DNA of 64,000 nucleotides from Spirochaetota bacterium (GCA_965208615.1 CBDBPB010000004.1:96001-160000), one strand, 5' to 3'; numbered from the stretch's first letter, positions 14,287 through 59,456 are shown. Made by a program: numbers and translations. The notes: generated by a model from the sequence alone, not told the origin.

Positions 14287-14975
14287 TGTTAACAAACGTT
14301 TTAGAAAAAATAACAAAAAACATTCTATCAGGCATTTTGTTAGTGAAGGTTTTAGTAGATTATTTTTTTTGTTTGTTATTTACTCATATAGGATTAGGTA
14401 TACTTTTTGAAGTTTTACATATAAAGTCAATATAGAATATTCCAATAATCCGCTCTAAGCCTTTGTGGAACGGCGAATCCGTTATCACTTAATAAAGGTC
14501 TATAATTCTTAGTCTCAGTAAGGGATTCTTAATAGCTCTCGTAGTGATGACTACTTGCATAAAAAGTGATATTTTGTGTTCATTGCTAAGGCATTTAAAC
14601 AGCACTTAAAGAGCATAAAGGGATAACCTGCTTGACACAAGAAAATAGCTTTTCCATGAATATCTTAACTTTCCTGTTCCATAAAGAAATCTGGAATTCA
14701 CTTCCCTTTACGTTATATGTCTTGCCTTTTTACCCTGTATGACTAGTCATAACTCTATCATAAAATGATAACTAAATTATTAAATAATATCCCTTTAAAT
14801 AACCTAATATCAAAAAAAAAACGCCATCCTCCCCAGTTACTAATTACTATAGCTTTTAGATAAAAAATTATTATAACACAATTGCTAAATAGATTTTATC
14901 TGCACTTTAGGAAGTTTAAAAAGATAAACTAACTTAGAATACTTTTGCTCTACACCACTAGAACAATTACTAACA
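14287..14975 (-). mobile_element. Non-coding TGT...ACA element, copy A (689 bp, single 74-bp-type unit)
   Basis: Reverse complement is near-identical to 35844-36402 and 58739-59456; imperfect terminal inverted repeats; no long ORF. Confidence 0.8.
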
Positions 14976-14993
14976 ATGAATGAAAATATTAAT

Positions 14994-15010
14994 TATTGAA
15001 GGCGGCGGAG
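14994..15010 (-). repeat. Degenerate copy of the tmRNA 3' end (att-like scar)
   Basis: TATTGAAGGCGGCGG versus TATTGGAGGCGGCGG at 17319-17333 (14/15), same orientation, 2.3 kb downstream of ssrA. Confidence 0.6.
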
Positions 15011-15080
15011 CCTTACCCCAATTCGCCCTCCAAACCGAAAAACATCCATAAGACAATTTTATTCAACAACTTACACCACA

Positions 15081-15176
15081 TCAAACCCTTTCATAAAAGG
15101 CTGAAAATTCCTGATAACGTTTCCGCCTATAAAGAGAGCGACCTAAATGCAAATCTAATGTGTGGAGGATCTTCAT
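15081..15176 (-). pseudogene. Truncated sbcD paralogue stub (31 aa)
   Basis: Translates MKILHTLDLHLGRSLYRRKRYQEFSAFYERV*, versus SbcD MKIIHTSDWHLGRSLYGKSRYKEF. Confidence 0.85.
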
Positions 15177-15415
15177 TTTCTGGCCTATCCTATAAAAATA
15201 TATATCAAACTTAATATAGAGAAATAATAAAGGCAAGGTGGCAAGCCACTTTTTATTGAACAGACACCTTAGAACGCTTTTTTGTTAAATTATTAGAACG
15301 TTTAAATGCCATAAAACTTTTTTATTTTATTGACCACAGTCTATCACAAAAGCTATAGTAAAAATCTAATGATACCAACATTCATACATAAAACTAAATA
15401 TCAATTAATCAACCT

Positions 15416-17260
15416 TTAACGAAATATTTCGACTACTTGTTTCTCATCATTTTTATTTTCTGCCTGAACATCTTTAACACTCCAACGATCTATAATCCAA
15501 TTAACTAACTTTTCCCTGCGTTTTTTAAGTGAGTCCACTGTCCAATCGTCAAAAGCTGCTATTTCACGTTCTTGGCGAATATCTGAATTGGCATAACAAA
15601 TACCTTCTCCACTCTTTCCTTTCTTACACTCAAAGGTAAAGTTACTATAAGCAGAGTTATTATTTGTTAGAACCAGATTTCCAATATCATGTAAGTAGGT
15701 ATCTATATGTTCTTGATTCCACTTCTCTTTCCATTCCTTTGTTTGGGTTTGAGGGAGAATATGCCCAATACTTGCTTCTTTAAGCTTAGCCCAAACTATT
15801 TTAGGGCTATGTTCATGACCATCCTCATGAAGCAAATGCTTCTCATATTCATAAAGTATATGCTTTAGACGCTTCCTATAATTACTACTACCATTAGCAT
15901 ACCACCAAGTTCTTGGGTTTTCTAAAAAGCGAATAAATTTTTCCTTTGGCGAATACCAATGGGTCAACTCATCAATTTTATTAACAAGGTCTTTAACAAA
16001 GCCTTTTTCATAGCCTTTTTTACTAAAAAGTTCATTTCCATGACGATAAAAATCTGCTTTACCTGTATTACCACGCTTGTTTACTATTAAAAAAACTCTA
16101 AACGCAAAGCGTTCAAGAGCTTTTAACAAATTAATATAATCATCTTTAGCCTGGTCATATACCCGTATACGAGCTGCAACCATTAATGGCAAAAAACTAG
16201 CAATAATGTTTATGTTCTCAAATTTAGTTAACCATTCAAACTCATCCTCACATAGATTATTAGCCTTAGAAGGATTTATAATAATAGAATAGTGTTTCGA
16301 AACCTTTACTAGATTATCAATAAATGTAGATAGGAACTCTTTTACTTCTTCTTTAGTTTTTTTAGAAAAATCACGGAGTGGAATGTACTTCTTAAAACTA
16401 TTATAACCATCCCAATGTTTAGCTTGATAACTACAGAAAAGAGTCCAAGCAATTTGAAGGCATTGGTCATCACTACCTGAATTAGCAAGATTAGAGTAAA
16501 TATCTTTCCATGCACTGTTTATCTTCTCTGTTAAAGTATTTCGTTCATTATTGTCAGTATTACGAAATAGCCAATGCTTAAAATAGTTTTTAAGTAACTC
16601 AAGAATACTAAGCTTCTTACCACGAGAATTCATTAGCTCAAAAGTCATTCCAATCTCACACTCTTCGTCAATAGCATAGTATGTGAAAACGAGCTTGTTG
16701 GTAATAGCATTAAAAAGCCCTTTTAAATACTTAGTTGACTCTTTCCTCCTCTTTTTTACTTGCTCTTCAATATGTTTTGAGAACTTCTTAGTGGCATTAA
16801 TTAGTCGCCCTTGGTGTGGAGTGGTCTCTTTGTTAGTTCTAGTATCACCATTTTCTAGAAGGTGACGGAATAAGCGTAAGTCACATTCATTATTTAAAGT
16901 CAACCTGCAAGTTTCTCCGTTATATAAGTATATAGGAGTCTTCTTTTCATACTCACTTTCTTCTTTTGCAAGCTCTCTAATAATTACTGAAAGATATAAA
17001 CTGATAGATGCAAGCCTCTGTTGTCCATCAACAACATCAAAGACTTCAACACTTTCTAGGTTATAATCTTTATTTTCTTTTGTTGAGTAGGCTACAATAG
17101 TCCCAACATAATGTGACTTTGCATAATGATCATCTACAAGAGAATCAATATCCTCAATAAGATCATTACAATGCTTATCCTCCCAAGCATAGCCCCTCTG
17201 ATATTCAGGAATAACGAAGACTTTACCGCTAAATAGTCTACCTAAAGTTTGCTTATCCAT
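15416..17260 (-). CDS. GmrSD-family (DUF262 + DUF1524) type IV restriction endonuclease
   Basis: IPEYQRGYAW, VVDGQQR, FELMNSRG; C-terminal HILPQ...IGNLVL..N HNH-like motif. Confidence 0.9.
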   Translation of the reverse strand: MDKQTLGRLFSGKVFVIPEYQRGYAWEDKHCNDLIEDIDSLVDDHYAKSHYVGTIVAYSTKENKDYNLESVEVFDVVDGQQRLASISLYLSVIIRELAKEESEYEKKTPIYLYNGETCRLTLNNECDLRLFRHLLENGDTRTNKETTPHQGRLINATKKFSKHIEEQVKKRRKESTKYLKGLFNAITNKLVFTYYAIDEECEIGMTFELMNSRGKKLSILELLKNYFKHWLFRNTDNNERNTLTEKINSAWKDIYSNLANSGSDDQCLQIAWTLFCSYQAKHWDGYNSFKKYIPLRDFSKKTKEEVKEFLSTFIDNLVKVSKHYSIIINPSKANNLCEDEFEWLTKFENINIIASFLPLMVAARIRVYDQAKDDYINLLKALERFAFRVFLIVNKRGNTGKADFYRHGNELFSKKGYEKGFVKDLVNKIDELTHWYSPKEKFIRFLENPRTWWYANGSSNYRKRLKHILYEYEKHLLHEDGHEHSPKIVWAKLKEASIGHILPQTQTKEWKEKWNQEHIDTYLHDIGNLVLTNNNSAYSNFTFECKKGKSGEGICYANSDIRQEREIAAFDDWTVDSLKKRREKLVNWIIDRWSVKDVQAENKNDEKQVVEIFR

Positions 17261-17321
17261 TGTTGCCCTCCATATAATTATATTTTTATATTAAGAAAAT
17301 ATATAAATTAGCACTTTATAT

Positions 17322-17673
17322 TGGAGGCGGCGGGAGTCGAACCCGCGTCCTAAAATAAATCAACTTATGCCACTAGCATGCTTAGTCTGCGATTCTTAAC
17401 TTCAGGATAACAGCCCTTGCACAGACACAGGTATATCATCCCTAACCTGTATTTGTCTCACTAAAAAGTCCAGGTCCCCTTTTAGCCAGCCTTAAGTAGC
17501 TTAACGCCCTATGACCAGTCCTTAAGACAAAGCCAGTCTAAGACGAGCAGCAATTATGCTGCTAATGCCAATTCTTGATTGTCGGCAATTAAATGTTTAG
17601 AGCATTTACGGGATACCCCAACCCGACATACCAACCTAAGCCTTTTTATCCCAGTCGAAACCGTGTCGCCCCC
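17322..17673 (-). ncRNA. ssrA: tmRNA, tag peptide ADNQELALAA
   Basis: 5' GGGGGCGACACGGTTTCGAC; 3' GGTTCGACTCCCGCCGCCTCCA; tag ORF 17586-17554 ending ALAA*. Confidence 0.97.
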
Positions 17674-17735
17674 TTTAAAATTAAAATAGAATAGCTAAAT
17701 TAAAAAAAAACATAAGTATATAAAATAAACAATAC

Positions 17736-18197
17736 CTAATTAGCCCTAAGCAACTTCTTTAATATAATAAACCTTGACCCAAAAGCAATATTACTCTTCT
17801 TAAACCATCCCCTATTAACCTCTAAAGCATATTTAGCCCTATTAGATGAAGAATAAACCCTGTTAGACTTAGGCTTCATACTAAAAACCTCAAATAACCT
17901 CTTATTCTCATCAAAAAAGCCAATATCCAAAGGTATTAAGGTGTTCTTCATCCAAAAAGATAATATTTGGGGATAATCAAAAATAAATAACATACCCCTG
18001 TCTTTTTTAAGGCTCTTCCTAAACATAAGGCCGACTTTATGCTTAACAGGTGTATCAGCAACCTCTACCAATAACCTCTTATTATTTAAACCAATAACAG
18101 CCTTATCAAAAGTAATCTTGCTGTCCCCGCTAACGAATAAGTTAGGAATAAGTAAAAATAAAATAGCAGGTATAGTCTTAAAAATATTAATACCCAT
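17736..18197 (-). CDS. DUF192 family protein
   Basis: VEVADT..GLMFR..GMLFIF..FWMKNTLIPLDIGF..YALEVNRG. Confidence 0.93.
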   Translation of the reverse strand: MGINIFKTIPAILFLLIPNLFVSGDSKITFDKAVIGLNNKRLLVEVADTPVKHKVGLMFRKSLKKDRGMLFIFDYPQILSFWMKNTLIPLDIGFFDENKRLFEVFSMKPKSNRVYSSSNRAKYALEVNRGWFKKSNIAFGSRFIILKKLLRAN

Positions 18198-18256
18198 AAG
18201 ACTATTATACTAAACTATTACAAAAAGTAAACAGATTTATTAAAATAAATGATAGA

Positions 18257-18748
18257 CTAGTCTCTCTCCACCACATTTAAACGACATCTATCATCACCTG
18301 CCGCCAACCTATACTCAATAGTAAGCTTAAAACCCATACCCTCATACTTACCATAATCAGTGGCATTAGCAATCTCACACATCTTATTAACCTCTGATGA
18401 TGATAAACCCATATCCTGCCAAGCCTCTACCAAAGGACATCTCTCCATGTCTATAACCGCTGATCTATTATCAACACTATGTATAGATGGCTTAAACAAC
18501 TCCCCACCGCAAACAGATGACTTAATAAACTCATCAGCCACACCTTTAAAATCCTTATTCTTAGCCATACCCTCATAACGATGAGACTTTAACCCTCCCC
18601 ACCTATAAATAGCCTTAGCCATAATCTTAGTAGCTCTCTCTTCACCAAACTCATTAACTAACTCCTCATAAAATAAACGGTAAAGTATAGCCCTGCTCTT
18701 ATATGCTTCGTATGTTTCTTTATAAGCCTTTTTAATTTCATTGTTCAT
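18257..18748 (-). CDS. L-2-amino-thiazoline-4-carboxylic acid hydrolase-like protein; start likely ATG 18748
   Basis: RCPLVEAW..G, MCEIA..D and GDDRC motifs; GGGGA RBS before 18748. Confidence 0.75.
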   Translation of the reverse strand: MNNEIKKAYKETYEAYKSRAILYRLFYEELVNEFGEERATKIMAKAIYRWGGLKSHRYEGMAKNKDFKGVADEFIKSSVCGGELFKPSIHSVDNRSAVIDMERCPLVEAWQDMGLSSSEVNKMCEIANATDYGKYEGMGFKLTIEYRLAAGDDRCRLNVVERD

Positions 18749-18760
18749 AGTTATCCCCCA

Positions 18761-18829
18761 TGTTAACAAACGTTTTAGCAAATATAACAAAAAAACGTTC
18801 TATCAGACATTTTGTTAGTGAAGGTTTTA
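18761..18829. repeat. Solo right end of the TGT...ACA element
   Basis: TGTTAACAAACGTTTTAGCAAATATAACAAAAAAACGTTCTATCAGACATTTTGTTAGTGAAGGTTTTA matches 14287-14354 and the reverse complement of 59389-59456. Confidence 0.9.
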
Positions 18830-18982
18830 CTATGTTATTGTAAAAGCATTTTAGGCTTGTCAAATTAATTATAATATATAACCTAAAAAAAACGTTTTTA
18901 ATAACATATTTAAGAATAATATTATTAGTTTTATTAACATCCATTATTATATTCATAGTAACACATTTTAAAATGTATCAAA

Positions 18983-19756
18983 ATGAAACTATATATAACT
19001 ATATTAATCCTATTCCTAAGCCTTAATAATTACGCAAAACAAAATGAAAAAAAACTACTTTATTTCGATGATAAAATCGGCGATGTATACAAAATTAATA
19101 GACTCTCAAATAAAAAAATATTTCTAAATAATAAACATATTAAAACATTAAATTATAAATATATAGGTAAAAAAGTAGTCGGAAATAATAAAAAAAGTAA
19201 AATAATAACCGAACTTAATAACCTATATAAAAACAATAAACTTATTATGAAACAATATAGCAAGTTTATTAGAGAAAAAAACGGCAGTATTAAAGTTAAA
19301 AATAATTATATTTATCCCCTGATCAGAGGTGTACCACAATTCCCTGACTTTAAGGTATCCATTGGAGACTCCTGGCAGGCTAAAGGCTTTTCTGTACTAA
19401 ATGTTACTAAACTAGGCTTTAGAAAACCTATACTCTCCCCTATAGATGTTAGGTATAAGTATGAAACCATAAAAAAAATAAATGGTGTAGAGTGTGCTGT
19501 AATATCAGCCTACTTCATAGATAACCTAGATAATAAAATCCCTGCTGGACCTATGTACAAAAAACTATGGGTTAGTAAAAGTGGATTACTCCCAGTAAGG
19601 TGGATAGGCTTCTCTAATGGACTATATTACTACTCTCTAAAAGATAACTATATTATACGCTTTAAACTTAACTATATCCATATATTTATACTCGAAAACG
19701 GCCTTATACAAGAAATTACCGGCTCTGACTACGCAAATATAATAAGAAAACGCTAA
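18983..19756 (+). CDS. Exported hypothetical protein, resembling the N-terminal domain of spirochaete OmpA-family proteins
   Basis: Signal peptide; PLIRGVPQFPDFKVSIGDSW motif; no OmpA C-terminal domain. Confidence 0.5.
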   Translation: MKLYITILILFLSLNNYAKQNEKKLLYFDDKIGDVYKINRLSNKKIFLNNKHIKTLNYKYIGKKVVGNNKKSKIITELNNLYKNNKLIMKQYSKFIREKNGSIKVKNNYIYPLIRGVPQFPDFKVSIGDSWQAKGFSVLNVTKLGFRKPILSPIDVRYKYETIKKINGVECAVISAYFIDNLDNKIPAGPMYKKLWVSKSGLLPVRWIGFSNGLYYYSLKDNYIIRFKLNYIHIFILENGLIQEITGSDYANIIRKR

Positions 19757-19787
19757 CTCAAAACATAAATAATATCGGAGATAATTA

Positions 19788-20960
19788 ATGAGAGTCTACC
19801 TCGACAATAATGCAACTACTCCTATACATCCTAAGATTATCAATACTATAAAAGAAAACCTTTCTCACTACGGTAACCCGTCCAGCCTGCACGAAATAGG
19901 TAAACAAACTAAATTATTAATCAATAATGCTAGAACCTATGTCGCATCACTATTGGGTGCATCCAATAAAGAAATTATATTCACCTCAGGGGCCACTGAA
20001 GCAAATAACACCGTAATAAAAGGTATAATAAATAACAAAGAAAATCACATAATAACTTCTAAGATAGATCATCCTTCTGTTATTAATCCATGCAAACATC
20101 TGGAGTCTATGGGCTATAACGTTAGCTATATCTCTGTGGATAAATACGGTATTATAAATTTATCAGAACTAGAAAATGCCATCTCTAACAAAACAAGGCT
20201 AATATCTGTTATCATGGCTAATAACGAAATAGGGACTATACAACCAATAAAAGAAATAAGTAGTTTAGCTAAAAAGCATAATATCCTATTCCACACCGAT
20301 GCTGTACAAGCTATTGGCAAGGTTAACGTTAACGTGGATGAACTGGAAATTGACCTCTTAACCCTATCTGCACATAAATGCGGCGGTCCAAAAGGCGTTG
20401 GAGCTCTTTATATAAAAAAAGGTATAAAAATTAATCCCCTATTATACGGCGGCGATCACGAAAAAGGCCAAAGATCTGGTACAGAAAATACCCTAGGTAT
20501 AATTGCTTTTGGTGAGCTTTGTAAAATATTAAAAAATAATATCTCCAACAATGCCAATCAAATGCTTAAACTTAGAAATAAACTGGAAAAAGCTATTCTT
20601 AATAACATCCCCGATGTTGTTTTAAACGGTCATCCAACTAACAGACTCCCAAATACCTTGAATATTAGTTTTAGCTTCTTAGAGGGTGAGGCTATTCTAC
20701 TAGCTTTGGATATGATTGGTGTAGCAGTATCCACCAGTTCTGCGTGTAGTAGTACACATCCTGAACCTTCCTATGTCATAATGGCACTAAACAAAGGCTT
20801 TGAAGTAGCACATAGCTCTATTCGCTTTAGCATAGGCACTCAAAATACTGATAAAGAAATAAACTATGTTATTAGTAGGTTCCCAAACTTAATTAAAAAC
20901 TTAAGGAAAGTTTCTCCGCTAAAACTAGATAATCCCTTCCTAAAAAATAATATATCATAA
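19788..20960 (+). CDS. iscS: Cysteine desulfurase (IscS/NifS)
   Basis: YLDNNATT, FTSGATE, HTDAVQ, SAHK..GPKG, RSGTEN, SSACSS. Confidence 0.93.
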   Translation: MRVYLDNNATTPIHPKIINTIKENLSHYGNPSSLHEIGKQTKLLINNARTYVASLLGASNKEIIFTSGATEANNTVIKGIINNKENHIITSKIDHPSVINPCKHLESMGYNVSYISVDKYGIINLSELENAISNKTRLISVIMANNEIGTIQPIKEISSLAKKHNILFHTDAVQAIGKVNVNVDELEIDLLTLSAHKCGGPKGVGALYIKKGIKINPLLYGGDHEKGQRSGTENTLGIIAFGELCKILKNNISNNANQMLKLRNKLEKAILNNIPDVVLNGHPTNRLPNTLNISFSFLEGEAILLALDMIGVAVSTSSACSSTHPEPSYVIMALNKGFEVAHSSIRFSIGTQNTDKEINYVISRFPNLIKNLRKVSPLKLDNPFLKNNIS

Positions 20961-20979
20961 GGTAATAAGGTTTTAAGCT

Positions 20980-21180
20980 CTATTTAATTTTATATTTTTG
21001 TTTAAACTTCTCTACTCTACCTGCAGTATCCAATATTTTATGCTTTCCAGTATAAAATGGATGGCAACTCGAACAAGTCTCAACATGAATGTTTTTAGCA
21101 GTAGACCTCGTTTTGAATGAATGTCCACATGCACAAGTAACCGTTACTTCTCCATATTTTGGATGAATATTCTTTTTCAT
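20980..21180 (-). CDS. rpmE: 50S ribosomal protein L31 (zinc-binding type)
   Basis: [27 protein letters not shown]. Confidence 0.98.
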
Positions 21181-21192
21181 TATTAACTCCTT

Positions 21193-24015: not shown

Positions 24016-24049
24016 TTAGCCTCCAACACCTATAGCTATATAAATACAC

Positions 24050-34850: not shown

Positions 34851-35026
34851 AAAGCAATTATCGACAACACTTTTATAATGGTTTAAAAATAAAGCAGTTT
34901 ATATAAGCTTAAAAAGAAGGAGTTTTAAGTTAGTTATTGTTACTAGTTGCTTTAGTAATGTAGAAAGCATTATAACTTAGCTTATATATTTAAAACTTAA
35001 AACATAGATAAAATCTATTTAGGAGT

Positions 35027-36500
35027 TGTTAATAATTGTTCTAGTGGTATAGAGCAAAAGTATTCTAAGTTAGTTTATCTTTTTAAAGCTTCCTGAAGTG
35101 CAGTTAGTAATTGTTCTAGTGGTGTAGAGCAAAAGTATTCTAAGCTAGTTTATCTTTTTAAACTTCCTAAAGTGCAGTTAGTAATTGTTCTAGTGGTGTA
35201 GACCAAAAGTATTCTAAATTAGTTTATCTTTTTAAACTTCCTAAAGTGCAGTTAGTAATTGTTCTAGAGGTATAGACCAAAAGTATTCTAAGTTAGTTTA
35301 TCTTTTTAAACTTCCTGAAGTGCAGTTAGTAATTGTTCTAGTGGTGTAGACCAAAAGTATTCTAAGTTAGTTTATCTTTTTAAACTTCCTAAAGTGCTGT
35401 TAGTAATTGTTCTAGTGGTGTAGAGCAAAAGTATTCTAAGTTAGTTTATCTTTTTAAACTTCCTAAAGTGCTGTTAGTAATTGTTCTAGAGGTATAGAGC
35501 AAAAGTATTCTAAGTTAGTTTATCTTTTTAAACTTCCTAAAGTGCTGTTAGTAATTGTTCTAGTGGTATAGAGCAAAAGTATTCTAAGTTAGTTTATCTT
35601 TTTAAACTTCCTAAAGTGCTGTTAGTAATTGTTCTAGTGGTGTAGAGCAAAAGTATTCTAAGTTAGTTTATCTTTTTAAACTTCCTAAAGTGCTGTTAGT
35701 AATTGTTCTAGAGGTATAGAGCAAAAGTATTCTAAGTTAGTTTATCTTTTTAAACTTCCTAAAGTGCTGTTAGTAATTGTTCTAGTGGTGTAGAGCAAAA
35801 GTATTCTAAGTTAGTTTATCTTTTTAAACTTCCTAAAGTGCAGTTAGTAATTGTTCTAGAGGTGTAGACCAAAAGTATTCTAAGCTAGTTTATCTTTTTA
35901 AACTTCCTAAAGTGCAGATAAAATCTATTTAGTAATTGTGTTATAATAATTTTTTATCTAAAAGCTATAGTAATTACTAACTGGGGAGGATGGCGTTTTT
36001 TTTTTGATATTAGGTTATTTAAAGGGATATTATTTAATAATTTAGTTATCATTTTATGATAGAGTTATGACTAGTCATACAAGGTAAAAAGGCAAGACAT
36101 ATAACGTAAAGGGAAGTGAATTCCAGATTTCTTTATGGAACAGGAAAGTTAAGATATTCATGAAAAAGTTATTTTCTTGTGTCAAGCAGGTTATCCCTTT
36201 ATGCTCTTTAAGTGCTGTTTAAATGCCTTAGCAATGAACACAAAATATCACTTTTTATGCAAGTAGTCATCACTACGAGAGCTATTAAGAATCCCTTACT
36301 GAGACTAAGAATTATAGACCTTTATTAAGTGATAACGGATTTGCTGTTCCATAAAAGCTTAGAGGGGATTATTGGAATATTCTATATTGACTTTATATGT
36401 AATTTTCTATGTGAATTAAAAATAATAGAACAGCTTATATCTATAAAAATTGATAAATCTAGAACGCTTTTACTATAACCTACTAGAACATTTGATAATA
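35027..36500 (+). mobile_element. Non-coding TGT-ended element, copy B (12-unit array, body, diverged right end)
   Basis: Body 35918-36402 is near-identical to copies A and C; boxes TAGAAC at 36460 and 36484 ending TAGAACATTTGATAATA. Confidence 0.78.
35029..35917 (+). repeat. Tandem array of 12 x 74-bp units
   Basis: Unit TTAGTAATTGTTCTAGTGGTGTAGAGCAAAAGTATTCTAAGTTAGTTTATCTTTTTAAACTTCCTAAAGTGCAG; starts at 35029, then 35104 + 74n up to 35844. Confidence 0.97.
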
Positions 36501-42429: not shown

Positions 42430-42600
42430 TATTAAAATACACCTAAAAGGCATCTAGTTTTAGGGAGATAAAAAAAGTTTTTTTAATAGATAAGATAAAC
42501 AATATACAAAAGAAAATAACTTTTCCATCAATATTTTACTTTTCTGTTCCACAAAGGAGTCTAAAATACATTTATCTTGACGTTATATGTTTTATCTTAA
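42430..42600 (-). repeat. Diverged fragment of the element body
   Basis: AAGAAAATAACTTTTCCATCAATATTTTACTTTTCTGTTCCACAAAG..ACGTTATATGT aligns with 14639-14720. Confidence 0.7.
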
Positions 42601-45382: not shown

Positions 45383-45396
45383 TCACCCCTAAATTT

Positions 45397-46119: not shown

Positions 46120-46175
46120 TATAGCAAATTGTTTTATGTTACAGGATAAGAACTGTATAAATAATCAAGGATATT

Positions 46176-48193: not shown

Positions 48194-48194
48194 A

Positions 48195-51100
48195 CTATAC
48201 CTTTTTAATCCTAATTATAGATTGCTCTCCATTTAAGTCCCACTCTTTGCCTTCGCCGTCAATGGACTTATTAAAAATAATATCCACAGCCAAAGTCTCA
48301 TTCTTTATATAATCACTAAGCCAAGTTATAGAGTCCCTCACAGTATTAGACGAAGAATAATCCACCCTAATCCTGTCAAGAACATCAAAGTTATACTCCT
48401 TCCTCATATTCTGTACCTTGTTAACAAACTCCCTTGCAAAACCCTCTTTTCTTAATTCAGTAGTAATCTCAGAGTTTAATGCCACTGTAACATCATCTGA
48501 TACCTCAATAACAAGACCAGGCCTCTCCTTTCTCTGTATTAAAACATCATCCAGCGTAATATTAATAACTTTATCATCATAACCTAACTCAATACCATTA
48601 CCACCCTCAAGCTTTATTATGTCATCCCCAGTGAGAGCAGAAATAATAGGAATAACCTTCTTTAACTCCTTACCCAACATAGGACCAAGCTTCTTTAAAT
48701 TAGGCTTTACCGTTAGAATAACTAAATCCTTATCACTCTTAGCCAAAACAACTGATTTAACATTAAGCTCCTCACAAACTAAATCACTCATGGCTGATAT
48801 AACCCTCTCATCATCACGATTGTGACATACAACTATAAGCTCACTCAAGGGTTGACGTACCTTTATACCATACTTATTCCTCAAAGAACGACCCAGAGAT
48901 ACAACCGTACGTATAAGGTTCATCTCATGTTCTAAGGTTAAACTTCTATCTCCGTCATCAGCAACAGGATAATCGCATAAGTGTATGCTCTCTTTAGCGT
49001 CCAAATTAACCGACCTAACAACCTGTTGGTATATTTCCTCAGTAATAAAAGGTAAAAAAGGTGCCAATACCTTTAACAAATCAACAAATACACTATACAG
49101 CGTATCATAAGCCTCTTTTTTATCATTATCACTCTCCGACTTCCAAAAACGCCTTCTACTCCTTCGTATATACCAATTAGAAAGCTTATCAATATACTCA
49201 AATATATGTTGACATGACCCAGAAGAGTCATAACTATCCAATGCCTTTGTTACCCCAGTAATTAGACCTTTAGTCTCTGATAATATCCATAAGTCCAATG
49301 GATTAGATGAATTATGTATATCGTCAGGCTTGTAGTTATCAATCCTCGCATAAGTTACAAAAAAACTGTATATATTCCATATTGGTAAAATAATCTGCTT
49401 AAGATTATCCTTTAGTGCATCCTCAGAAAAGCGTATTGAATTACCAGGACTGGTATTCAAAAATAACCATCGCATAGCATCAGCACCATATTTATTAACC
49501 ATATCCGCAGGATCAACTACATTACCCTTAGATTTGCTCATCTTATGGCCGTCTTTATCCAAAACCAACTCTGTACATATAACATTCTTATAACTAGACC
49601 TGTCAGTCAACATAGTAGATATGGCTAATAAAGCATAAAACCAACCCCTTGTTTGATCCTGACCCTCACATATAAAATCAGCTGGATATTGACTGTTTAA
49701 TAACTCTGTAGAACCATCCTTAGAAGGATAGGCAAACTGACCCCAAGGCATTATCCCAGAATTATACCAACAATCTAGTACATCAGGCTCCCTTGTCATA
49801 TCCGACTTACACTTTGGACAAGTGCATATAACCTTGTCTATCTCTGGGATATGTAAATCAAAATCATCATCAATCTTAACTTTAGAATAGTCATTTAGCT
49901 CTTTAATAGACTCAACACAAATCTGATGCTTACAATCACCATTAGTACATGTCCAAATAGGCAAAGGTGAACCCCAATAACGCTCACGGGATATACACCA
50001 ATCCACATTGTTCTCAAGCCAATTACCAAACCTACCATCCCGTATATGACCAGGATACCAGTTAATATCCTTATTAGCCAATAACATACGATCCTTATAA
50101 GCAGTAGTTTTTATAAACCAGCTCGACTTTGCATAATACATAAGCCTCGCACCAGTACGATAGCAAAAGGGATAGGAATGCTCCAACCTCTCCTTAGCAA
50201 ATACTAAACCCCGTGATGACAAATCCTTAAGTATATTAACATCCATACCATCTTCAGTAAAGTATTTACCAGCATAGTCCCCACACTCATTAGTAAAATA
50301 ACCAGATAAATTAATATGCTGTACATAAGGCAAATCATACTTTTTAATTATACGATAGTCATCCTCGCCGTATAAAGCTAAATGAACAATACCAGTACCA
50401 TCCTCAGTGGTAACATAATCATCGTTTATAGTAAAATGCTTTCGCTTATCAAAACCACTATGAAACCCCCATAAAGGCTCATAGTCTATATTAACTAAAT
50501 CAGAACCCTTATAACGTTCAATTATATCATAATCGGCAAGAAAACCCTTATCCTCTAAAGGCTTAAGCCGTGCCTCAGCCAGAATATACTTCTCATTGTT
50601 AACCCTAATCTTAACATAATCAATATCCTTAGCAAGGGCTAGAGCTACATTACCTAATAAAGTCCATGGGGTAGTAGTCCATGCTAAGAAAAAGGTATTA
50701 TCCTCATCCCTAATAGCAAACTTAGCAAAAATAGATATATCTACTACATCCCTATACCCTTGGGCAACCTCATGATTTGATAATGACGTTCCAAGCCTTG
50801 GACAATGTGCTATAACCTTATGACCCTGATATAAAAGACCCTTCTCCCATGCACGCTTTAATACCCACCAATCACTTTGAATAAAATCATTAGTAAGAGT
50901 GGCATATTCATCCTCAAAGTCTAAAAACCGCCCAATACGCCTAATAGCATTAACCCACTCACCCTTATACCTAAACACCGTTTTACGACAATAATCTATA
51001 AACTTACTAACTCCATAATCTTCAACATCCGCCTTAGAGTTTAAACCAAGCTCCTTCTCAGCAGTAAGCTCAATAGGTAAACCATGAGTATCCCAGCCAG

Positions 51101-52621: not shown

Positions 52622-55272
52622 CCCAATAGACTAAGATTATCCCTTAGCTTATCCAAATTAATACTAAACTCCTTTAGCTTATCCTTTTCCTTTTGGATAA
52701 CTATATCCTTAGCTTTGTTTATAAAATCATTATTCTGGAGTTTTTTATTAGTTCTAGTGAGTTCTTTTTCGAGCTTATTTATTTCTTTTACAGTTCTATC
52801 CTTTTCTTTATCTATATCTATTACGCCTTTTAGAGGGATGTATAACTCATAACCACTACCAATACTATATGCACAACCAGAATCCATACTAAACTCGTCT
52901 CTAATGCTCATCGACTCTAACTTAGCAAGACTATTAATATATTCACTATGATTATTTAATAAAGTTATTACGTTGTTATCAGTGGCCTTTACAACAATAT
53001 TAACCCTTTTATCAGGAGGTATGTTCATCTCACCCCTTATATTACGAATGCTATAAACAATCTCCTTAATTATAGCCATGTTCTTTTCTGCAGTGTTATA
53101 TGAATATTCACTGTTCACCTTGGGATAACTGCTAACCATAATACTATCCCCATCATGGGATAGCTTTTGCCACACTTCCTCTGTGATAAAAGGCATAATA
53201 GGGTGTAAAAGCTTTAAACTCTCTGATAACACATATACCAAAATGGATAAACTATTCTCTTTCTCTTTAACAGACTCACCATACAGCTTAATTTTGGATA
53301 ATTCAATATACCAATCACAAAAATCATGCCAGATAAAGTCATAGAGAGCCATAGCAAAATCATTGAACCTATAAGAACTCAAATAATTATCAGACTTAAG
53401 AATTACATTATTTAAGCTGGTTAATATCCACTTATCAGCCAAGCTTAAACAGTCTTTATCAATAGGGTTTATACTATAATTCTTTATATTCATAAGTATA
53501 TACCTTGATGCATTCCATATCTTATTGGCAAACCTTGTACCCACTAAAAAGTCATTTTCTTTATCAGAAAAGGATAACTTAATATCAAGTCCCATAGGAG
53601 ATAAACTGGTAATAGTAAACCTAAGAGCATCTGCACCATGCTTATTTATTACTTTTAGTGGATCTATACCGTTACCCAATGACTTACTCATTTTTCTACC
53701 CAGCTTATCCCTCACCGTTGAATGAAGGTATACCTCAGAATATGGTATATCATCCATAAAGTACAGCCCAGCCATAATCATTCTGGCAACCCAAAAGAAT
53801 AATATCTCCGGAGCAGTGGATAAAACATTAGTAGGATAAAAATAACTAAGCTCCTTAGTCTTGTCAGGCCAACCCATAGTAGAAAAAGGCCACAACATAG
53901 ACGAAAACCATGTATCCAATACATCATTATCCTGTTCCAAAGGGCAATTACACTTGGGACAGCTATTAGGATCCTCTCTGGTAACTATAATCTCATTACA
54001 ATTAGTACAAGTCCAAACTGGTATTCTATGTCCCCACCATATCTGCCTACTAATACACCAATCCTCTATGTTGTCCATCCAGTGTATATATACCTTTTTA
54101 TGCTTAGACGGATAAAAACGTATTTCATTATTCTCAACAACCTCCTTAGCCTTTTTAGCAAGGGGTTTCATCTTTACAAACCACTGATCAGATAAATAAG
54201 GCTCCACCATTGTGGAACATCTATAACAATGTCCAACATTATGTATGTGATCAATCTTTTTAATAAATAGTCCCTGGTTAATAAGATCATTAACAACCTT
54301 CTTTCTGCACTCAAAGCGGTCTAAGCCCTTATAGTTATTCCCTGCATCCTCACTCATAGTGCCATTGGGGTTCATTATATTAATCTGTTTTAGATTATGC
54401 CTCTTAGCAATTAAAAAATCATTGGGATCATGAGCTGGAGTAACCTTAACAGCACCAGTACCAAAATCCATCTTACTATGCCTATCAGCTATTATAGGTA
54501 TCTCTCTGTTTACCAGTGGGAGTATTAAGGTTTTACCTATAAGATGTTTATACCTATTATCATTGGGATTAACAGCTACAGCGGTATCCCCAAGCATAGT
54601 CTCTGGACGAGTAGTAGCAATCTCAATATATTTATCGCTATTTTTGATCATATATTTTATGTGATAAAAAAAGCCGCTTATAGACTCATAATCAACCTCT
54701 TCGTTGCTAAGAGCTGTCCCACACCTCGGACACCAATTTACTATATACTTACCCTTATATATTAATCCATCCTCATATAAGCGTACAAACACCTCTCTTA
54801 CAGCTTTAGACAGTCCAGGATCCATTGTAAACCGTTCTCTATCCCAATCGCAGGAACATCCCATAGCTTTTAGCTGATTTATAATTATACTACCATATTG
54901 TTCTTTCCACTTCCAGACTTCTTTTATGAAGTCCTCTCTTGTGTAGTCGTGTCTGGACTTATTCTTAGCGGATAATTCTTTCTCTACCACGTTTTGAGTG
55001 GCTATACCCGCATGATCAGTACCAGGCATCCAAAGAGTATTATAACCCTGCATTCTTTTCCAGCGGATTAGTATATCCTGTATGGTATTATTTAGACCAT
55101 GTCCCATGTGTAAATGAGAGGTTATATTAGGTGGAGGTATAACAATGGTAAACGGCTCTATCTTATTATTAGGACTGGCATTAAAATAACCTTTCTTTTC
55201 CCAAAAGCTAAACCATTTTTGTTCAAAGTCTTTTGGATTATAAATCTTAGGCAGTTCAGACACTATAAACAC
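52618..55272 (-). CDS. valS: Valyl-tRNA synthetase
   Basis: PPPNIT..HMGH, DHAGIATQ, ATTRPET, KMSKS, C-terminal coiled coil. Confidence 0.98.
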   Translation of the reverse strand: MFIVSELPKIYNPKDFEQKWFSFWEKKGYFNASPNNKIEPFTIVIPPPNITSHLHMGHGLNNTIQDILIRWKRMQGYNTLWMPGTDHAGIATQNVVEKELSAKNKSRHDYTREDFIKEVWKWKEQYGSIIINQLKAMGCSCDWDRERFTMDPGLSKAVREVFVRLYEDGLIYKGKYIVNWCPRCGTALSNEEVDYESISGFFYHIKYMIKNSDKYIEIATTRPETMLGDTAVAVNPNDNRYKHLIGKTLILPLVNREIPIIADRHSKMDFGTGAVKVTPAHDPNDFLIAKRHNLKQINIMNPNGTMSEDAGNNYKGLDRFECRKKVVNDLINQGLFIKKIDHIHNVGHCYRCSTMVEPYLSDQWFVKMKPLAKKAKEVVENNEIRFYPSKHKKVYIHWMDNIEDWCISRQIWWGHRIPVWTCTNCNEIIVTREDPNSCPKCNCPLEQDNDVLDTWFSSMLWPFSTMGWPDKTKELSYFYPTNVLSTAPEILFFWVARMIMAGLYFMDDIPYSEVYLHSTVRDKLGRKMSKSLGNGIDPLKVINKHGADALRFTITSLSPMGLDIKLSFSDKENDFLVGTRFANKIWNASRYILMNIKNYSINPIDKDCLSLADKWILTSLNNVILKSDNYLSSYRFNDFAMALYDFIWHDFCDWYIELSKIKLYGESVKEKENSLSILVYVLSESLKLLHPIMPFITEEVWQKLSHDGDSIMVSSYPKVNSEYSYNTAEKNMAIIKEIVYSIRNIRGEMNIPPDKRVNIVVKATDNNVITLLNNHSEYINSLAKLESMSIRDEFSMDSGCAYSIGSGYELYIPLKGVIDIDKEKDRTVKEINKLEKELTRTNKKLQNNDFINKAKDIVIQKEKDKLKEFSINLDKLRDNLSLLG

Positions 55273-55501
55273 CTCATTATTTTATAGGGATTTAGTTGTT
55301 TTGGGGTTATATTTACGGCTAACTATTATCTATCTTTCAAAATAACAGTTAAATATACTGGTTTATAATTTAGTAAAAAAAACATTAAGGGTGGACTATT
55401 TTTTTTTATATTTTAGCTTTCTTATCCAAAATATAGATGTTAATGATAGTTCTAATGCCTGCAAGCCAAACATAACTATGATAAAAATAATAAGTTAATA
55501 T

Positions 55502-55576
55502 AAAAAAAGCTAAGAAGTTAACTTCTTAGCTTTAACTGTCATAAACAGCCCTAGCTCTAACTAGGGAACTGTTTAT
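55502..55576 (-). terminator. Double hairpin terminator after the Cys-rich lipoprotein gene
   Basis: 28-bp perfect palindrome 55506-55533 with a minus-strand U tract; second stem ATAAACAG..CCCTAG/CTAGGG..CTGTTTAT at 55541-55576. Confidence 0.75.
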
Positions 55577-55579
55577 TTA

Positions 55580-57082
55580 TTAATTTGTGTCATCATCTTT
55601 TTTACACTCTTCAGCCTCTTCAGACGTATTAATCCAACTAATAGCTTCATAACCTCCTGTTTCACATTCTTTAGCACTCTTTCCACATCTTATAAGCTTA
55701 TGGGTTCTCCTGTCGGTAATTTTACATAGTTTATCACCAGGAGTACATTGGCTAGGACCCCAATGACTACTAGTATAGTTAGGTTTTTTTCCTTCTTCAT
55801 CACAATCCTCTTCAGTCTTAAAATCACATGTCCTGCTCACATAAGAGGGCTTACCTCCTAATTTAATATCTTTATCCAACTGACACAATTTCGTTTCAGC
55901 TGTTTCAGACTCTTCACATTTAGTATCCACAACCCACTCAGCTTTACTAGCACTAGTTTTTTTAATAGATCCATCATCATTACGATCTATAATTTCACTA
56001 AATTTATTAGTGTTACAATCTGAGTTTGCTTCGACTGTACTATCACATGTAATTTTAGATTTCTTAGCAATCACTTTAGCCTCAGGCTTATTACTATCGA
56101 TAATAGTTTCAGTCAGTTTTGTAACCTTACATATATGTTTTATTGGAATACACGTATTTGAACCCGTCAACCATTTAATTGTTCGTGGATTACCTTGCTT
56201 CTTATTATCATTAACCTTTTTCTCAAAAACTGATCTTGGTATTTTTAGACATTCTACATTTTTAGTGGCACCCGTTTCAACACTAACTACATTCTCACCA
56301 TCTCTACAAACTACCCCTCCCCACTTAACTTCAACGCCAGTTCCAGGACCATCCGTATTCTTAGCATTACAAGCGGCTTGAGTTATATAATTGTCAATAC
56401 CCCTTTTCCCACATGCCGTAGTAACATCAGTAATTTTACCACTAGCATCCTTAGTCGCAGTAATAGTCCTACATAATCCAATCTCCACAGTCTCTACTTT
56501 ACAAGCAGCTCTATCAACCCATTTATTACTACTAGTACAGGCTGATTTTGTTACGTCAGTATTACATTTAGTGGTAACTTTTCTCTTTAGGGGCGAATTG
56601 CCAATATCATTAGTAGTAGAACTCTCACATGCTCTCTCAGCAGTCACTGGGCTAGGACATGTAGCAGACTTAACAACCCATTCCTTATCTTCACCAGTAC
56701 ATGTTGATTTTAGTGTGCTCTCACATTCAGTATTGATTGTTGTCTGACCCACTTTAGTATTATCTTCAGTTCTAATCAGACATTCTTTAGGACCTTTTAT
56801 ACACTTACTTGCTTCAACCAACTTAGCTTCAGCATTAGGAGCCTTACCCTTAGCAGTACAAGCGGCTTCATCAGCTACCTCTTCACATGTTGTTGTAACA
56901 TCAGTAATTTCACCATTAGCATTCTTAGTCGCAGTATCAATCTCACATAGTTGTGTTGCAGGGGCAGGTTTCTTATTTCCAGAACCAAGGACTTCGTTCA
57001 CCTGATCCTCCCCACAGCCTTTAGCCCCTATTGAAATAAAAAAAACCATAGCTGATAACAGTACAATTAATAGTTTTCCCAT
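55580..57082 (-). CDS. Cysteine-rich repeat lipoprotein
   Basis: AAGGAG RBS; hydrophobic signal ending GAKG-C23; 31 Cys in repeated modules. Confidence 0.8.
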   Translation of the reverse strand: MGKLLIVLLSAMVFFISIGAKGCGEDQVNEVLGSGNKKPAPATQLCEIDTATKNANGEITDVTTTCEEVADEAACTAKGKAPNAEAKLVEASKCIKGPKECLIRTEDNTKVGQTTINTECESTLKSTCTGEDKEWVVKSATCPSPVTAERACESSTTNDIGNSPLKRKVTTKCNTDVTKSACTSSNKWVDRAACKVETVEIGLCRTITATKDASGKITDVTTACGKRGIDNYITQAACNAKNTDGPGTGVEVKWGGVVCRDGENVVSVETGATKNVECLKIPRSVFEKKVNDNKKQGNPRTIKWLTGSNTCIPIKHICKVTKLTETIIDSNKPEAKVIAKKSKITCDSTVEANSDCNTNKFSEIIDRNDDGSIKKTSASKAEWVVDTKCEESETAETKLCQLDKDIKLGGKPSYVSRTCDFKTEEDCDEEGKKPNYTSSHWGPSQCTPGDKLCKITDRRTHKLIRCGKSAKECETGGYEAISWINTSEEAEECKKDDDTN

Positions 57083-57312
57083 ATTTACTCTCCTTAATTT
57101 AATATAAAATTTAAAATTTAGTGCAAAACACTATACTTTATTATAACTATTAATTTATAAATAACCAAATAAAAAGTCAATTTTTACTTAAAACTTTTTA
57201 AGCTATATAAAATATACAAAACAAAACCTTATAGGGTAGACTTATTACCTGAACTATATTTAGAGTATTAGAGTAACAAAAAACAGAAGGTTATTAATGG
57301 TTTTAACAGATA

Positions 57313-57560
57313 TTGTTATAAATTATTCAGCGGGTTATTATAAAAACGTTCTAAGGCGGTTTAGAACTTCTAAGTTTTTAGTATCAGGATATAAAGTTTA
57401 CTCTAATTTATACATACTTGTACAGTGCATATAGTAAAATAACGTTTGCTGAGGCTAAAATTATATACTTATTAAGTCTTAAAGCATTTGCCTTTCCATA
57501 AAGACATATAGCAGATTAATAGAATATTATATGTTGGTGTTATCCATAAAACTTTTGAAG
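57313..57560 (+). repeat. Diverged short copy of the element just upstream of copy C
   Basis: GCTGAGGCTAAAATTATATACTTATTAAGT..ATTTGCCTTTCCATAAAG..AGCAGATTA aligns with 59201-59274; end-like TTGTTATAAATTATTC..AAAACGTTCTAAG. Confidence 0.65.
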
Positions 57561-57622
57561 GCTGTCTGTAATACTTTATAACATAATATGTAACTTAAGC
57601 AATATAAAAAATAACCCAATAT

Positions 57623-59456
57623 TGTTAGTAATTGTTCTAATGGTATAGACCAAAAGTATTTTAAGTTAGAGTTAATAGCAAGCTGGTTTTAGCTAATACG
57701 ATGATTTTAAAGAAAAACATTGCTGATAGTATTAAAGAGGGGCTATTTATAATGCTTATAACTCAAGGATAACGGCTTCTCATAAAGTTGAGGTTGTTGA
57801 CTATGGGAATACATATAAACATGTACGTTTAGACTTTGAATTAGGGTTTATAATTGTTCTAGAGGTGTATACCAAAAGTATTTTAAGTTAGAGTTAATAG
57901 CAAGCTGGTTTTAGCTAATACGATGATTTTAAAGAAAAACATTGCTGATAGTATTAAAGAGGGGCTATTTATAATGCTTATAACTCAAGGATAACGGCTT
58001 CTCATAAAGTTGAGGTTGTTGACTATGGAAATACATATAAACATGTACGTTTAGACTTTGAATTAGGGTTTATAATTGTTCTAGAGGTGTAGACCAAAAG
58101 TATTTTAAGATAGAGTTAATAGCAAGCTGGTTTTAGCTAATACGATGATTTTCAAGAAAAACATTGCTGATAGTATTAAAGAGGGGCTATTTATAATGCT
58201 TATAACTCAAGGATAACGGCTTCTCATAAAGTTGAGGTTGTTGACTATGGAAATACGTATAAACATGTACGTTTAGACTTTGAATTAGGGTTTATAATTG
58301 TTCTAGAGGTGTAGACCAAAAGTATTTTAAGATAGAGTTAATAGCAAGCTGGTTTTAGCTAATACGATGATTTTCAAGAAAAACATTGCTGATAGTATTA
58401 AAGAGGGGCTATTTATAATGCTTATAACTCAAGGATAACGGCTTCTCATAAAGTTGAGGTTGTTGACTATGGGAATACATATAAACATGTACGTTTAGAC
58501 TTTGAATTAGGGTTTATAATTGTTCTAGAGGTGTAGACCAAAAGTATTTTAAGTTAGAGTTAATAGCAAGCTGGTTTTAGCTAATACGATGATTTTCAAG
58601 AAAAACATTGCTGATAGTATTAAAGAGGGGCTATTTATAATGCTTATAACTCAAGGATAACGGCTTCTCATAAAGTTGAGGTTGTTGACTATGGAAATAC
58701 GTATAAACATGTACGTTTAGACTTTGAATTAGGGTTTATAATTGTTCTAGAGGTGTAGACCAAAAGTATTTTAAGTTAGTTTATCTTTTTAAACTTCCTA
58801 AAGTGCAGATAAAATCTATTTAGTAATTGTGTTGTAATAATTTTTTATCTAAAAGATATAATAATTAGTAGCACATAGGCAAACATAATAAGAAGGTATT
58901 TTTTGTGATAATTTAGGTTATTTAAAGGGATATTATTTAATAATTCAGTTATCATTTTATGATAGAATTATGACTAGTCATACAAGGTAAAAAGGCAAGA
59001 CATATAACGTAAAGGGAAGTGAATTCCAGATTTCTTTATGGAACAGGAAAGTTAAGATATTTATGAAAAAGTTATTTTCTTGTGTCAAGCAGGTTATCCC
59101 TTTATGCTCTTTAAGTGCTGTTTAAATGCCTTAGCAATGAACACAAAATATCACTTTTTATGCAAGTAGTCATCACTACGAGAGCTATTAAGAATCCCTT
59201 ACTGAGACTAAGAATTATAGACCTTTATTAAGTGATAACGGATTTGCCGTTCCATAAAGCTATAGAGCAGATTATTTAAATATCACATATTGACTTTATA
59301 TGTAATACTTCAAAAAGTATACCTAATCCTCTATGGGTAAATAACAAACAAAAAATAATCTACATAAAACCTCTTTACAATAAAAAACTAAAACCTTCAC
59401 TAACAAAATGCCTGATAGAACGTTTTTTGTTATATTTGCTAAAACGTTTGTTAACA
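57623..59456 (+). mobile_element. Non-coding TGT...ACA element, copy C (5 x 222-bp array plus full body)
   Basis: Starts TGTTAGTAATTGTTCTA and ends TAAAACGTTTGTTAACA; 58739-59456 matches copy A. Confidence 0.8.
57629..58738 (+). repeat. Tandem array of 5 x 222-bp units
   Basis: TAATTGTTCTA recurs at 57629, 57851, 58073, 58295, 58517 and 58739; units are nearly identical. Confidence 0.97.

Follow-up and report, generated by a model that had tools for sequence, protein, structure and literature searches.

A genome-wide family of non-coding elements with Mu-type ends and tandem left-end arrays in a Spirochaetota bacterium

Non-coding repeats in a 64,000-nt stretch of DNA from a Spirochaetota bacterium (GCA_965208615.1, CBDBPB010000004.1:96001-160000; hereafter the window) were found to belong to a genome-wide family whose ends resemble those of a resident Mu-like prophage. 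Judging from sequence, we read these elements with modest confidence as non-autonomous DDE transposons of the Mu superfamily, in effect natural mini-Mu, which the transposase of the prophage, or of an extinct relative, may have moved in trans. Mobilisation in trans had been proposed in a preliminary description of the window; a candidate enzyme can now be named, encoded in a prophage outside the window. No target-site duplication was found at the elements, which counts against simple mobility. A literature search returned no earlier description of a natural mini-Mu-type repeat without proteins, nor any publication that connects MITEs with Mu-like phages.

Spread, ends and core of the family

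With a core of approximately 400 nt as query, nhmmer returned 56 matches across the 2.46-Mb genome, of which 40 are nearly full-length; a profile search of the same genome gave 64 core-family matches, so that the family reaches beyond the window. All 56 matches are intergenic and none overlaps an ORF of at least 110 aa, and coding capacity was sought in the elements and not found, in agreement with the earlier view of a non-coding element. A copy enclosing an enzyme gene, which the preliminary description had suggested looking for, did not turn up: none of the 56 encloses an ORF of at least 110 aa. The copies show no constant orientation relative to neighbouring genes and are unevenly spaced, with eight full copies within C4:83-201 kb and the next only at 357 kb. 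Mean identity is 0.888 for pairs less than 60 kb apart (n = 45) compared to 0.837 for the remaining pairs (n = 735), indicating that nearby copies tend to be close relatives. Outside the source genome, the core was found neither in 30 relatives and 150 genomes of the phylum nor when genome, metagenome and viral collections were scanned for exact words; for a flanking gene, the best metagenome relative is 52% identical.

A typical copy consists of an L end (1-15 copies), module X or P, the core, an inner right end (R2) and an outer right end (R1), and elements delimited by L..R pairs are 650-1950 bp long. Every end type displays TGT at positions 1-3 and TTCTA at 13-17 and 37-41, so that a TGT tip is followed by two or more TTCTA boxes in 24-nt phasing, where, we infer, a transposase provided in trans would bind. 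The ends keep a constant orientation around the core and are asymmetric, with two boxes on the left and three to four contiguous boxes on the right. As in terminal inverted repeats, L and R2 share 70% identity across 43 nt and have TGT and both boxes at identical positions. BLAST yielded 110 end loci (L 73, R2 17, R1 15, phage-type 5), in which the conserved stretch covers about 55 nt for L (25 loci) and about 70 nt for R1 (15 loci). Termini had previously been described as TGT-N8-RTTYTA. This single box is only weakly enriched, by 1.5-1.8x (133 on contig C4 against 75-90 in five shuffles), whereas the two-box form occurs 36 times on C4 against 0-1 in five shuffles and 76 times genome-wide. 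Degenerate tips (TATTA, CGTTA, CATTA) are frequent, and many copies are therefore probably immobile. Around the 40 near-full cores, both ends were recognised in 17 cases, L only in 3, R only in 7 and neither in 13, the last group counting against a simple mini-Mu reading.

Within the core, variation per column amounts to 4-8% at the centre and 17-23% at the edges, and two short palindromes, TATCAT..ATGATA and TATGACTAGTCATA, could be read directly in its 5' part. No conserved ORF was detected, and no Rfam family was matched. The core is without convincing RNA structure: folding is no better than that of shuffles for the forward strand (z +0.40) and marginal for the reverse strand (z -1.91), and the consensus fold reaches -11 kcal/mol with compensatory change in 2 of 35 pairs. 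Neither BLAST nor shared 12-mers revealed a counterpart of the core in the Mu-like prophage, and simple deletion of this phage consequently does not account for the elements. No packaging or regulatory sequence of phage type was found in them either.

Copies and tandem arrays in the window

Repeat listing, nhmmer and direct reading placed three copies (A, B and C), the fragments, mini copies and solo ends where they had been located before. Copy A (14287-14975, minus strand) is a complete single element with its L tip at 14975, comprising a 74-nt L unit (14902-14975), module P (about 14822-14901), the core (about 14415-14821), an R2-like inner end (about 14335-14380) and an outer R1 end with two boxes (14287-14334). 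Positions 14415-14974 of A form a 560-nt inverted repeat with 35843-36402 of B that is 98% complementary, and A matches C (58892-59355) over 464 nt at 94%.

Copy B opens with an array of 12 tandem 74-bp L units, each with a two-box left end (35027-35917, plus strand; in the assembly listed as a tandem repeat at 35028-35917, 12.0 copies of period 74 with 96% matches), in which GTGC is followed at internal junctions by either TGTTAG or AGTTAG. Its body (35918-36500, plus strand) holds module P and the core (35983-36402), followed by a right end of R2 type that reaches to near 36500; R1 is absent. Just left of the array, a diverged older L unit with the start of module P (34936-35026, plus strand) ends exactly at the first tip; it is 74% identical to L and P of copy A over 101 aligned columns and appears in the repeat listing as copies of 62-78%. 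We read it as a putative fossil of a nested insertion. In copy C, the array (57623-58779, plus strand; in the tandem-repeat listing 57629-58779) comprises 5.2 units of 222 bp at 98% matches, each made of an L end and module X, with an intact tip on the first unit and a degenerate one (GGTTTATAATTG) at internal junctions. The body of C (58780-59456, plus strand) continues with the last L unit, a P-like module, the core (58897-59328), an R2-like inner end (about 59365-59408) and the outer R1 end (59409-59456). Directly upstream of C lies the deleted relic of another family member (57313-57562, plus strand), which bears a phage-type box (AAACGTTCTAAGG) near 57340, shares 12-mers with the phage end and was aligned by nhmmer to core positions 311-433 at 57443-57562 (plus strand).

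Smaller pieces complete the picture. A core fragment at 42507-42597 (minus strand) covers core positions 108-199 (nhmmer E 9e-6). A 99-bp mini element (7341-7439, plus strand) combines a single-box left end with a two-box right end of phage type that closes with ACA, with a terminator-like hairpin between them and no flanking duplication; its truncated copy at 3073-3144 (plus strand) is 97% identical over 68 nt and 95% over 75 nt. A solo right-end relic at 13208-13283 (plus strand), in which a hairpin and T run precede a two-box end of phage type closing with ACA (end proper at 13236-13283), is part of a 201-nt repeat (D4), the second copy of which holds the relic again at 15235-15310 (plus strand; end proper at 15263-15310). 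At 18761-18853 (plus strand), a solo R1 plus R2-like end with the tip TGTTAAC at 18761 reads inwards in the rightward direction; it matches positions 470-547 of the core model, with no core attached.

The array counts proposed earlier, twelve left ends in B and five in C, were thus recovered. The additional sequence in C, previously taken for captured cargo, is module X, a standard part of the family that 24 of the 40 full cores have in the 400 nt upstream of them. The suggested link between left end and arrays also held and proved sharper than first described: at least seven arrays of different period (74, 110, 169, 201, 263, 317 and 318) have units that start with an intact TGTTA tip, and the left sides of the junctions fall at differing points of module X between arrays. 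Under random tandem duplication, the tip would be expected as the start about once per period length. We therefore propose nested self-insertion followed by recombination, rather than the repeated re-copying of the end suggested before. A resident copy would receive a second element in its left part, recombination between the two cores would leave two tandem left ends with the tip as their exact start, and unequal crossing-over would then expand them. The nested R2-inside-R1 right end may have arisen by the same route of insertion and recombination. For eukaryotes, PMC9659126 likewise describes tandem arrays derived from transposon ends, in which non-autonomous elements have terminal or internal stretches expanded; here the host is a prokaryote and units begin exactly at the predicted transposase cleavage tip.

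A Mu-like prophage as candidate partner

The prophage (G000:C7:424829-460177, 35.3 kb) has adjacent genes for a 532-aa DDE transposase (phrog_310, E 3.4e-35) and an AAA ATPase of 282 aa (DNA transposition protein phrog_296, E 1.8e-26; AAA_22, E 7e-23). The best solved-structure matches of the transposase are retroviral integrase cores (E 6e-5). Pfam rve lends its DDE fold weak support, with an E of 7.5e-5 that misses the curated cut-off. Genes for terminase, tape measure and Baseplate_J are present besides Portal_Mu (E 5e-90) and Phage_Mu_F (E 2.5e-23), and the prophage is apparently intact. A second copy of the transposase module, 98.5% identical, exists. Both prophage ends (TG...CA) begin with TGTTA and have two boxes and 47 identical bases in common, in inverted orientation. 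Over 43 nt, R1 matches the phage end at 81% identity, R2 at 70% and L at 60%, box spacing being equal in phage and elements, and BLAST matches between phage and elements are confined to the ends. Taking the low identity of L into account, the resident transposase may not bind this end.

The prophage splits one core copy, 143 nt from an L end and 322 nt from an R1 end, and is flanked by the duplication GTGCTG, which reads as 6 bp, although 5 bp plus one chance match would also fit. The target-site duplication of Mu itself is 5 bp. As noted in the preliminary description, no consistent target-site duplication accompanies the elements: none was found for 17 L..R pairs, the youngest copies (96-98% identity) included. 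When the flanks of 62 tips were compared all against all, four pairs matched, of which three are no more than chance gives, and the fourth, the prophage's own, is the only one genome-wide whose members are partner ends of a single element.

Alternative readings and known systems

The earlier suggestion of kinship with IS21, IS481/IS1202 or Tn7-like elements, which would make the likeness to the prophage ends convergent, did not withstand the enzyme searches and is very improbable. TG...CA tips with repeated subterminal boxes are common to these families, and L shares only 60% identity with the phage end, but R1 reaches 81% with identical box spacing, and no copy encloses an ORF of at least 110 aa. 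A whole-genome search with Pfam rve gave no match at E <= 0.01, although it was positive in 7 of 14 control genomes, and DDE_Tnp_1, TnpB, IS110 and RVT_1 returned nothing at the same threshold; the sole rve-type/AAA enzyme pair found sits in the prophage with the Mu-type portal, F and tail genes. We therefore consider a Mu-like family the better fit. That the tandem arrays, as opposed to the family, are assembly artefacts of a repeat-rich genome would agree with 5 of 18 contig ends having a family feature no more than about 3 kb away (about 2.6 expected), yet this too is hardly credible: units inside one array are 93-100% identical with ordered point changes and with A- and T-type junctions grouped in blocks, 11 of 40 full-core loci have at least two L tips, with nine unit lengths and differing junctions among these arrays, and a second 74-bp array of 15 units lies at C4:91067-92177.

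An unlikely but not negligible reading holds that the core is a functional locus maintained by the host, either weakly structured RNA genes or a site for a nucleoid or regulatory protein, and that its copies are immobile, being kept alike by selection and gene conversion, with Mu-type ends as relics of old spread or of phage-type insertions attracted to the core. The conserved core centre, the two palindromes, similarity that tracks proximity, the 13 full cores without recognisable ends and the landing of the prophage inside a core agree with it, as do near-identical copies without target-site duplication, which fit homogenised old insertions. Against it stand the missing Rfam match and conserved ORF, the poor folding, the restriction of the core to the source genome among all collections searched, its variable orientation to neighbouring genes and ends conserved as well as the core, which is unexpected of relics. 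We regard as improbable an interaction with the phage in which the elements are satellites, replicated by its transposase and headful-packaged from their ends, or decoys protecting the chromosome, where arrays of end boxes would titrate transposase or render the surrounding DNA unattractive for insertion. DNA bearing Mu end sites becomes a poor Mu target, up to 24-30 boxes are found per locus (12-15 L units) at about 60 loci over the genome, and the ends match a resident, apparently intact prophage with a second transposase module. However, the prophage sits inside an element, whose nearby L and R1 ends hence did not prevent its insertion, the copies are clustered rather than evenly spaced, and the elements have no phage-like packaging or regulatory sequence.

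Mini-Mu are laboratory deletion derivatives of phage Mu retaining just the two ends. The elements described here, read as natural mini-Mu, resemble them in lacking a transposase gene, in asymmetric TG...CA ends with several phased (here predicted) binding sites, and in the presence of a candidate helper, a transposable phage with DDE transposase and AAA ATPase, on which they would depend. They differ in being natural, in their roughly 56 copies with a non-coding core foreign to the phage, in the diverged (60%) and arrayed left end and in the lack of target duplication. Ends of Tn7-like, Tn5053 and Tn552 type also have TGT tips and several subterminal repeats, which bind an rve-type transposase acting together with an AAA ATPase, but no TnsB/TniA-type gene was found here by Pfam rve. 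Known phage satellites (P4, PICI, PLE), to our knowledge, encode proteins and integrate by their own integrases, whereas the present elements encode nothing; parasitism of helper replication would be a possible common trait. With bacterial MITEs, as outlined for the Correia elements of Neisseria in PMC3898611, they share a non-autonomous, multi-copy and intergenic nature, inverted ends and the lack of an ORF, but differ from that account in their length, in multi-box Mu-type ends without target-site duplication and in a candidate autonomous partner that is a phage instead of an insertion sequence. As for the core of the family, it probably works in cis as DNA, or else as a weakly structured transcript, and would benefit the element, for example as an enhancer-like or packaging sequence.

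Core family and end architecture

In this genome of 2.46 Mb (31% G+C, 9 contigs), the body of copy A finds 56 places, or 64 when a profile is used, and more than 330 nt of the ~400-nt core are covered in 40 copies. All features listed in the preliminary description are present in the window, including the three main copies A (14287-14975, minus strand), B (35027-36500, plus strand) and C (57623-59456, plus strand), which match with 98% identity over 560 nt (A and B) and 94% over 464 nt (A and C). The two segments regarded there as diverged fragments are partial cores; the mini copies and solo ends agree with their earlier description. None of the 56 copies overlaps an ORF of at least 110 aa, and they occur in co-directional, divergent and convergent gaps in proportions like those of the background, with no fixed orientation towards neighbouring genes. 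Core sequences have a median pairwise identity of 85%, with per-column variation of 4-8% in the centre and 17-23% at the edges. Closely related cores often share a contig at distances of 6-90 kb, and the youngest group (96-98% identity), which includes A, B and C, is found at 83-201 kb of contig C4; this clustering fits either local transposition or local conversion. For annotation, the cores alone account for at least 21 kb that would otherwise resemble unexplained conserved intergenic DNA.

Order and orientation around the cores are constant, with one or more left ends (L), followed by module X or P, the core and an inner right end of the R2 type. In many copies an outer right end, R1, is added, with its inner boundary abutting the R2-like tip. 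BLAST with four end types yields 110 end loci (73 L, 17 R2, 15 R1 and 5 of the type that ends the prophage discussed below). Both ends flank 17 of the 40 full cores; another 3 have L alone, 7 a right end alone and 13 no end, and 11 carry at least two L tips. The stretch that had been considered extra cargo of copy C turns out to be module X, a regular constituent standing upstream of 24 of the 40 cores; module P, the one present in A and B, precedes 9. All end types share one geometry, with the terminal TGT at positions 1-3 and TTCTA (or TTTTA) boxes at 13-17 and 37-41, to which the right end adds one or two more boxes that keep the 24-nt phase. Since conservation extends over ~55 nt in L (25 loci) and ~70 nt in R1 (15 loci), the ends are kept as well as the core. 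The end motif TGT-N8-RTTYTA, proposed earlier in its single-box form, shows only a modest excess on contig C4 (133 occurrences versus 75-90 in five shuffles); it is the two-box form that stands out, with 36 occurrences versus 0-1. In the mini elements, and likewise in the solo ends at 13283 and 15310, a terminator-like hairpin precedes a two-box end of the phage type; these pieces look like relics of prophage right ends.

Several further repeats were observed in the window. A 201-nt direct repeat (13078-13278 and 15105-15305, 85%) stands on either side of copy A and of a 276-aa gene of no assigned family, and a 117-nt repeat (13284-13400 and 17089-17205, 97%) overlaps two ORF ends. This region is located just downstream of the tmRNA gene (17319-17673) and adjoins a GmrSD-type restriction gene and SbcD; at the tmRNA locus it gives the impression of a patchwork island. 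A perfect tandem duplication of 24 bp (59495-59543, 2.0 copies, 100%) separates the R1 tip of copy C from the DUF1385 gene start and adjoins a near-consensus promoter-like site at 59463-59490. Repeats of 82 nt (1002-1083, 49465-49546 and 53615-53696, 63-73%) reside within minus-strand ORFs of 856, 1051 and 884 aa; because the repeat spells a KMSKS-type motif on the coding strand, these are probably ordinary paralogous class I aminoacyl-tRNA synthetases.

Evidence on mobility and a Mu-like prophage

The idea of non-coding elements mobilised in trans can be examined at the flanks. None of the 17 L-to-right-end pairs has matching flanks. Comparing the flanks of 62 unique tips all against all gave four matching pairs. 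Just one of them, that of the phage, consists of partner ends belonging to one element; the remaining three, with matches of 6 bp (two pairs) and 5 bp (one pair), are at about chance level for this base composition. Degenerate tips are frequent among the elements. Absent duplications and degenerate tips could both be explained if gene conversion had homogenised old insertions, or if rearrangement had come after replicative events. In lacking a target duplication the elements depart from one defining feature of MITE or transposon insertions, and because of this, together with the weak match of the left end to the resident phage, we do not treat them as proven members.

The lineage is isolated (among the genomes searched, its family has no other member and its order is represented by two), and the best metagenome relative of the gene adjoining copy C, at 52% identity, is too distant to reveal empty sites. 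BLAST of the element against 30 relatives returned just one 48-nt match (E 3.8e-4) and did not find the core. In 150 genomes of the phylum, a sequence-only model for the core gave four weak, chance-like matches (E 0.002-0.004, 55% column identity). Exact 23-24-mers of the element have no match in genome, metagenome and viral collections, nor did blastn yield one in phage and plasmid collections.

A lead to a candidate partner comes from one core on contig C7, which is split into positions 1-242 and 229-547, 35.3 kb apart. The intervening DNA carries inverted two-box ends of the same geometry as the elements and is flanked by a GTGCTG duplication. C7:424829-460177 is a Mu-like transposable prophage, apparently intact, encoding a 532-aa transposase (phrog_310, E 3e-35; Pfam rve at just E 7.5e-5; PDB integrase cores, E 6e-5), an adjoining 282-aa AAA ATPase (phrog_296 'DNA transposition protein', E 2e-26), a Mu-type portal (E 5e-90), Mu F, terminase, tape measure, baseplate J and a sigma-70-type factor of its own. 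Its early and late genes run towards opposite ends; also observed were three P22_AR_N antirepressor-like genes in tandem and, near the right end, an internal tandem repeat of ~129 bp. Over 43 nt, the phage end shares 81% identity with R1, 70% with R2 and 60% with L.

A second copy of the transposase module, including the ATPase, is located at C3:10639-15823 (5.2 kb, 98.5% identical), without recognisable ends, and could be a domesticated or stranded enzyme source. A second, degraded prophage at C7:139129 retains one phage-type end. Whole-genome Pfam searches at E <= 0.01 for rve, DDE_Tnp_1, TnpB, IS110 and reverse transcriptase were all empty, with positive controls, leaving the Mu-like enzyme as the sole candidate among the families searched. 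The genome seems nearly free of ordinary insertion sequences, yet holds ~60 loci of this family. The transposase itself is highly divergent, with three distant matches among 300 genomes of the phylum, four among 5.8 billion proteins (including the genome's own second copy), two faint ones to known phages (22-25% identity) and no relatives in genome and viral contig collections. Its AlphaFold2 model (mean pLDDT 49.8) is too poor for a fold search.

Formation of the left-end arrays

Copies B and C are headed by tandem arrays of 12 units of 74 bp (35028-35917) and 5.2 units of 222 bp (57629-58779), respectively. At least two L tips occur at 13 loci, with assembly-based periods of 74, 110, 152, 169, 201, 208, 222, 263 and 317/318 bp. 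In the arrays of 74, 110, 169, 201, 263, 317 and 318 bp, an intact TGTTA tip directly follows some point within the 3' portion of module X (or of the L unit), and this point varies between arrays; the 222- and 208-bp arrays have degenerate junction tips. A tandem duplication with random breakpoints is expected to start at a tip about once per one period length. Seven such coincidences mean that the junctions arose at the tip itself, as products of transposase chemistry. To the left of array B stands an older L unit with the beginning of module P; the two together are 74% identical to their counterpart in A and are cut exactly at the first new tip.

The simplest account, in our view, starts with an element that inserted itself into the left portion of a copy already present. 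The cores, then in direct repeat, would recombine with loss of the intervening DNA, leaving two tandem left ends which could subsequently expand via unequal crossing-over. The same three-step process on the opposite side would produce the right end in which R2 lies inside R1.

Possible role of the core and significance

The core has stops in every frame and no three-base periodicity. Small proteins were rejected, since six candidate ORFs of 20-38 aa, intact in 19-35 of the 40 copies, show more non-synonymous than synonymous changes and none is conserved. A structured RNA was likewise dropped as the main reading, because Rfam gave nothing relevant (whole window at gathering score, copy A at E <= 10), single-sequence folding is near shuffle level (no better in forward orientation, z +0.40, and marginally better in reverse, z -1.91) and consensus folds are weak (-11 to -19 kcal/mol over 400 columns, with 2 of 35 pairs compensatory). 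Derivation from the phage was rejected too: beyond the ends, no shared sequence was found by BLAST (word size 7), filters-off profile search or shared 12-mers, and a 13-nt match in the phage early region reads as chance-like. Promoter and terminator scans found sites no commoner than in shuffles; TGTGTTATAAT of module P looks as much like a decayed end tip as like a promoter. As regards DNA bending, 3.4% of 500 shuffles equalled the 11-bp AA/TT periodicity of the core within the 10-11 bp band, and 13.8% did so when all periods were considered. At the 5' core edge, two short palindromes, TATCAT-N3-ATGATA and TATGACTAGTCATA (14770-14800 in copy A, minus strand, and at the same place in other copies), could be operator-like protein sites; in some copies both arms are altered. 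With modest confidence we favour a cis-acting role of the core for the element over a host RNA gene.

Mu-type transposable phages are a classic model. The elements resemble mini-Mu in having two asymmetric multi-site ends, no enzyme of their own and, in the same cell, a transposable phage with matching ends. To our knowledge, mini-Mu elements exist only as laboratory constructs, and a full-text literature search found no description of natural mini-Mu or of MITE-like families derived from Mu-like phages. A bolder reading, which we consider rather unlikely, is that the elements form a satellite system of a transposable phage, replicated by the helper transposase and headful-packaged from their ends. 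The end-box arrays would then titrate transposase or shift phage landing, as the active prophage lies within one element, and the core would act as a cis-acting enhancer or packaging signal, or as a regulatory transcript. Were this satellite reading true, ~60 different stretches of host chromosome would be carried into virions.

Dozens of natural, protein-less Mu-ended elements on one chromosome would demonstrate that transposable phages can give rise to MITE-like parasites or sustain them. They would also provide a natural setting in which to study how ends are recognised by a highly divergent transposase that is almost without relatives, how insertion becomes self-targeted, the opposite of Mu target immunity, and how transposon tips in a prokaryote give birth to tandem arrays.
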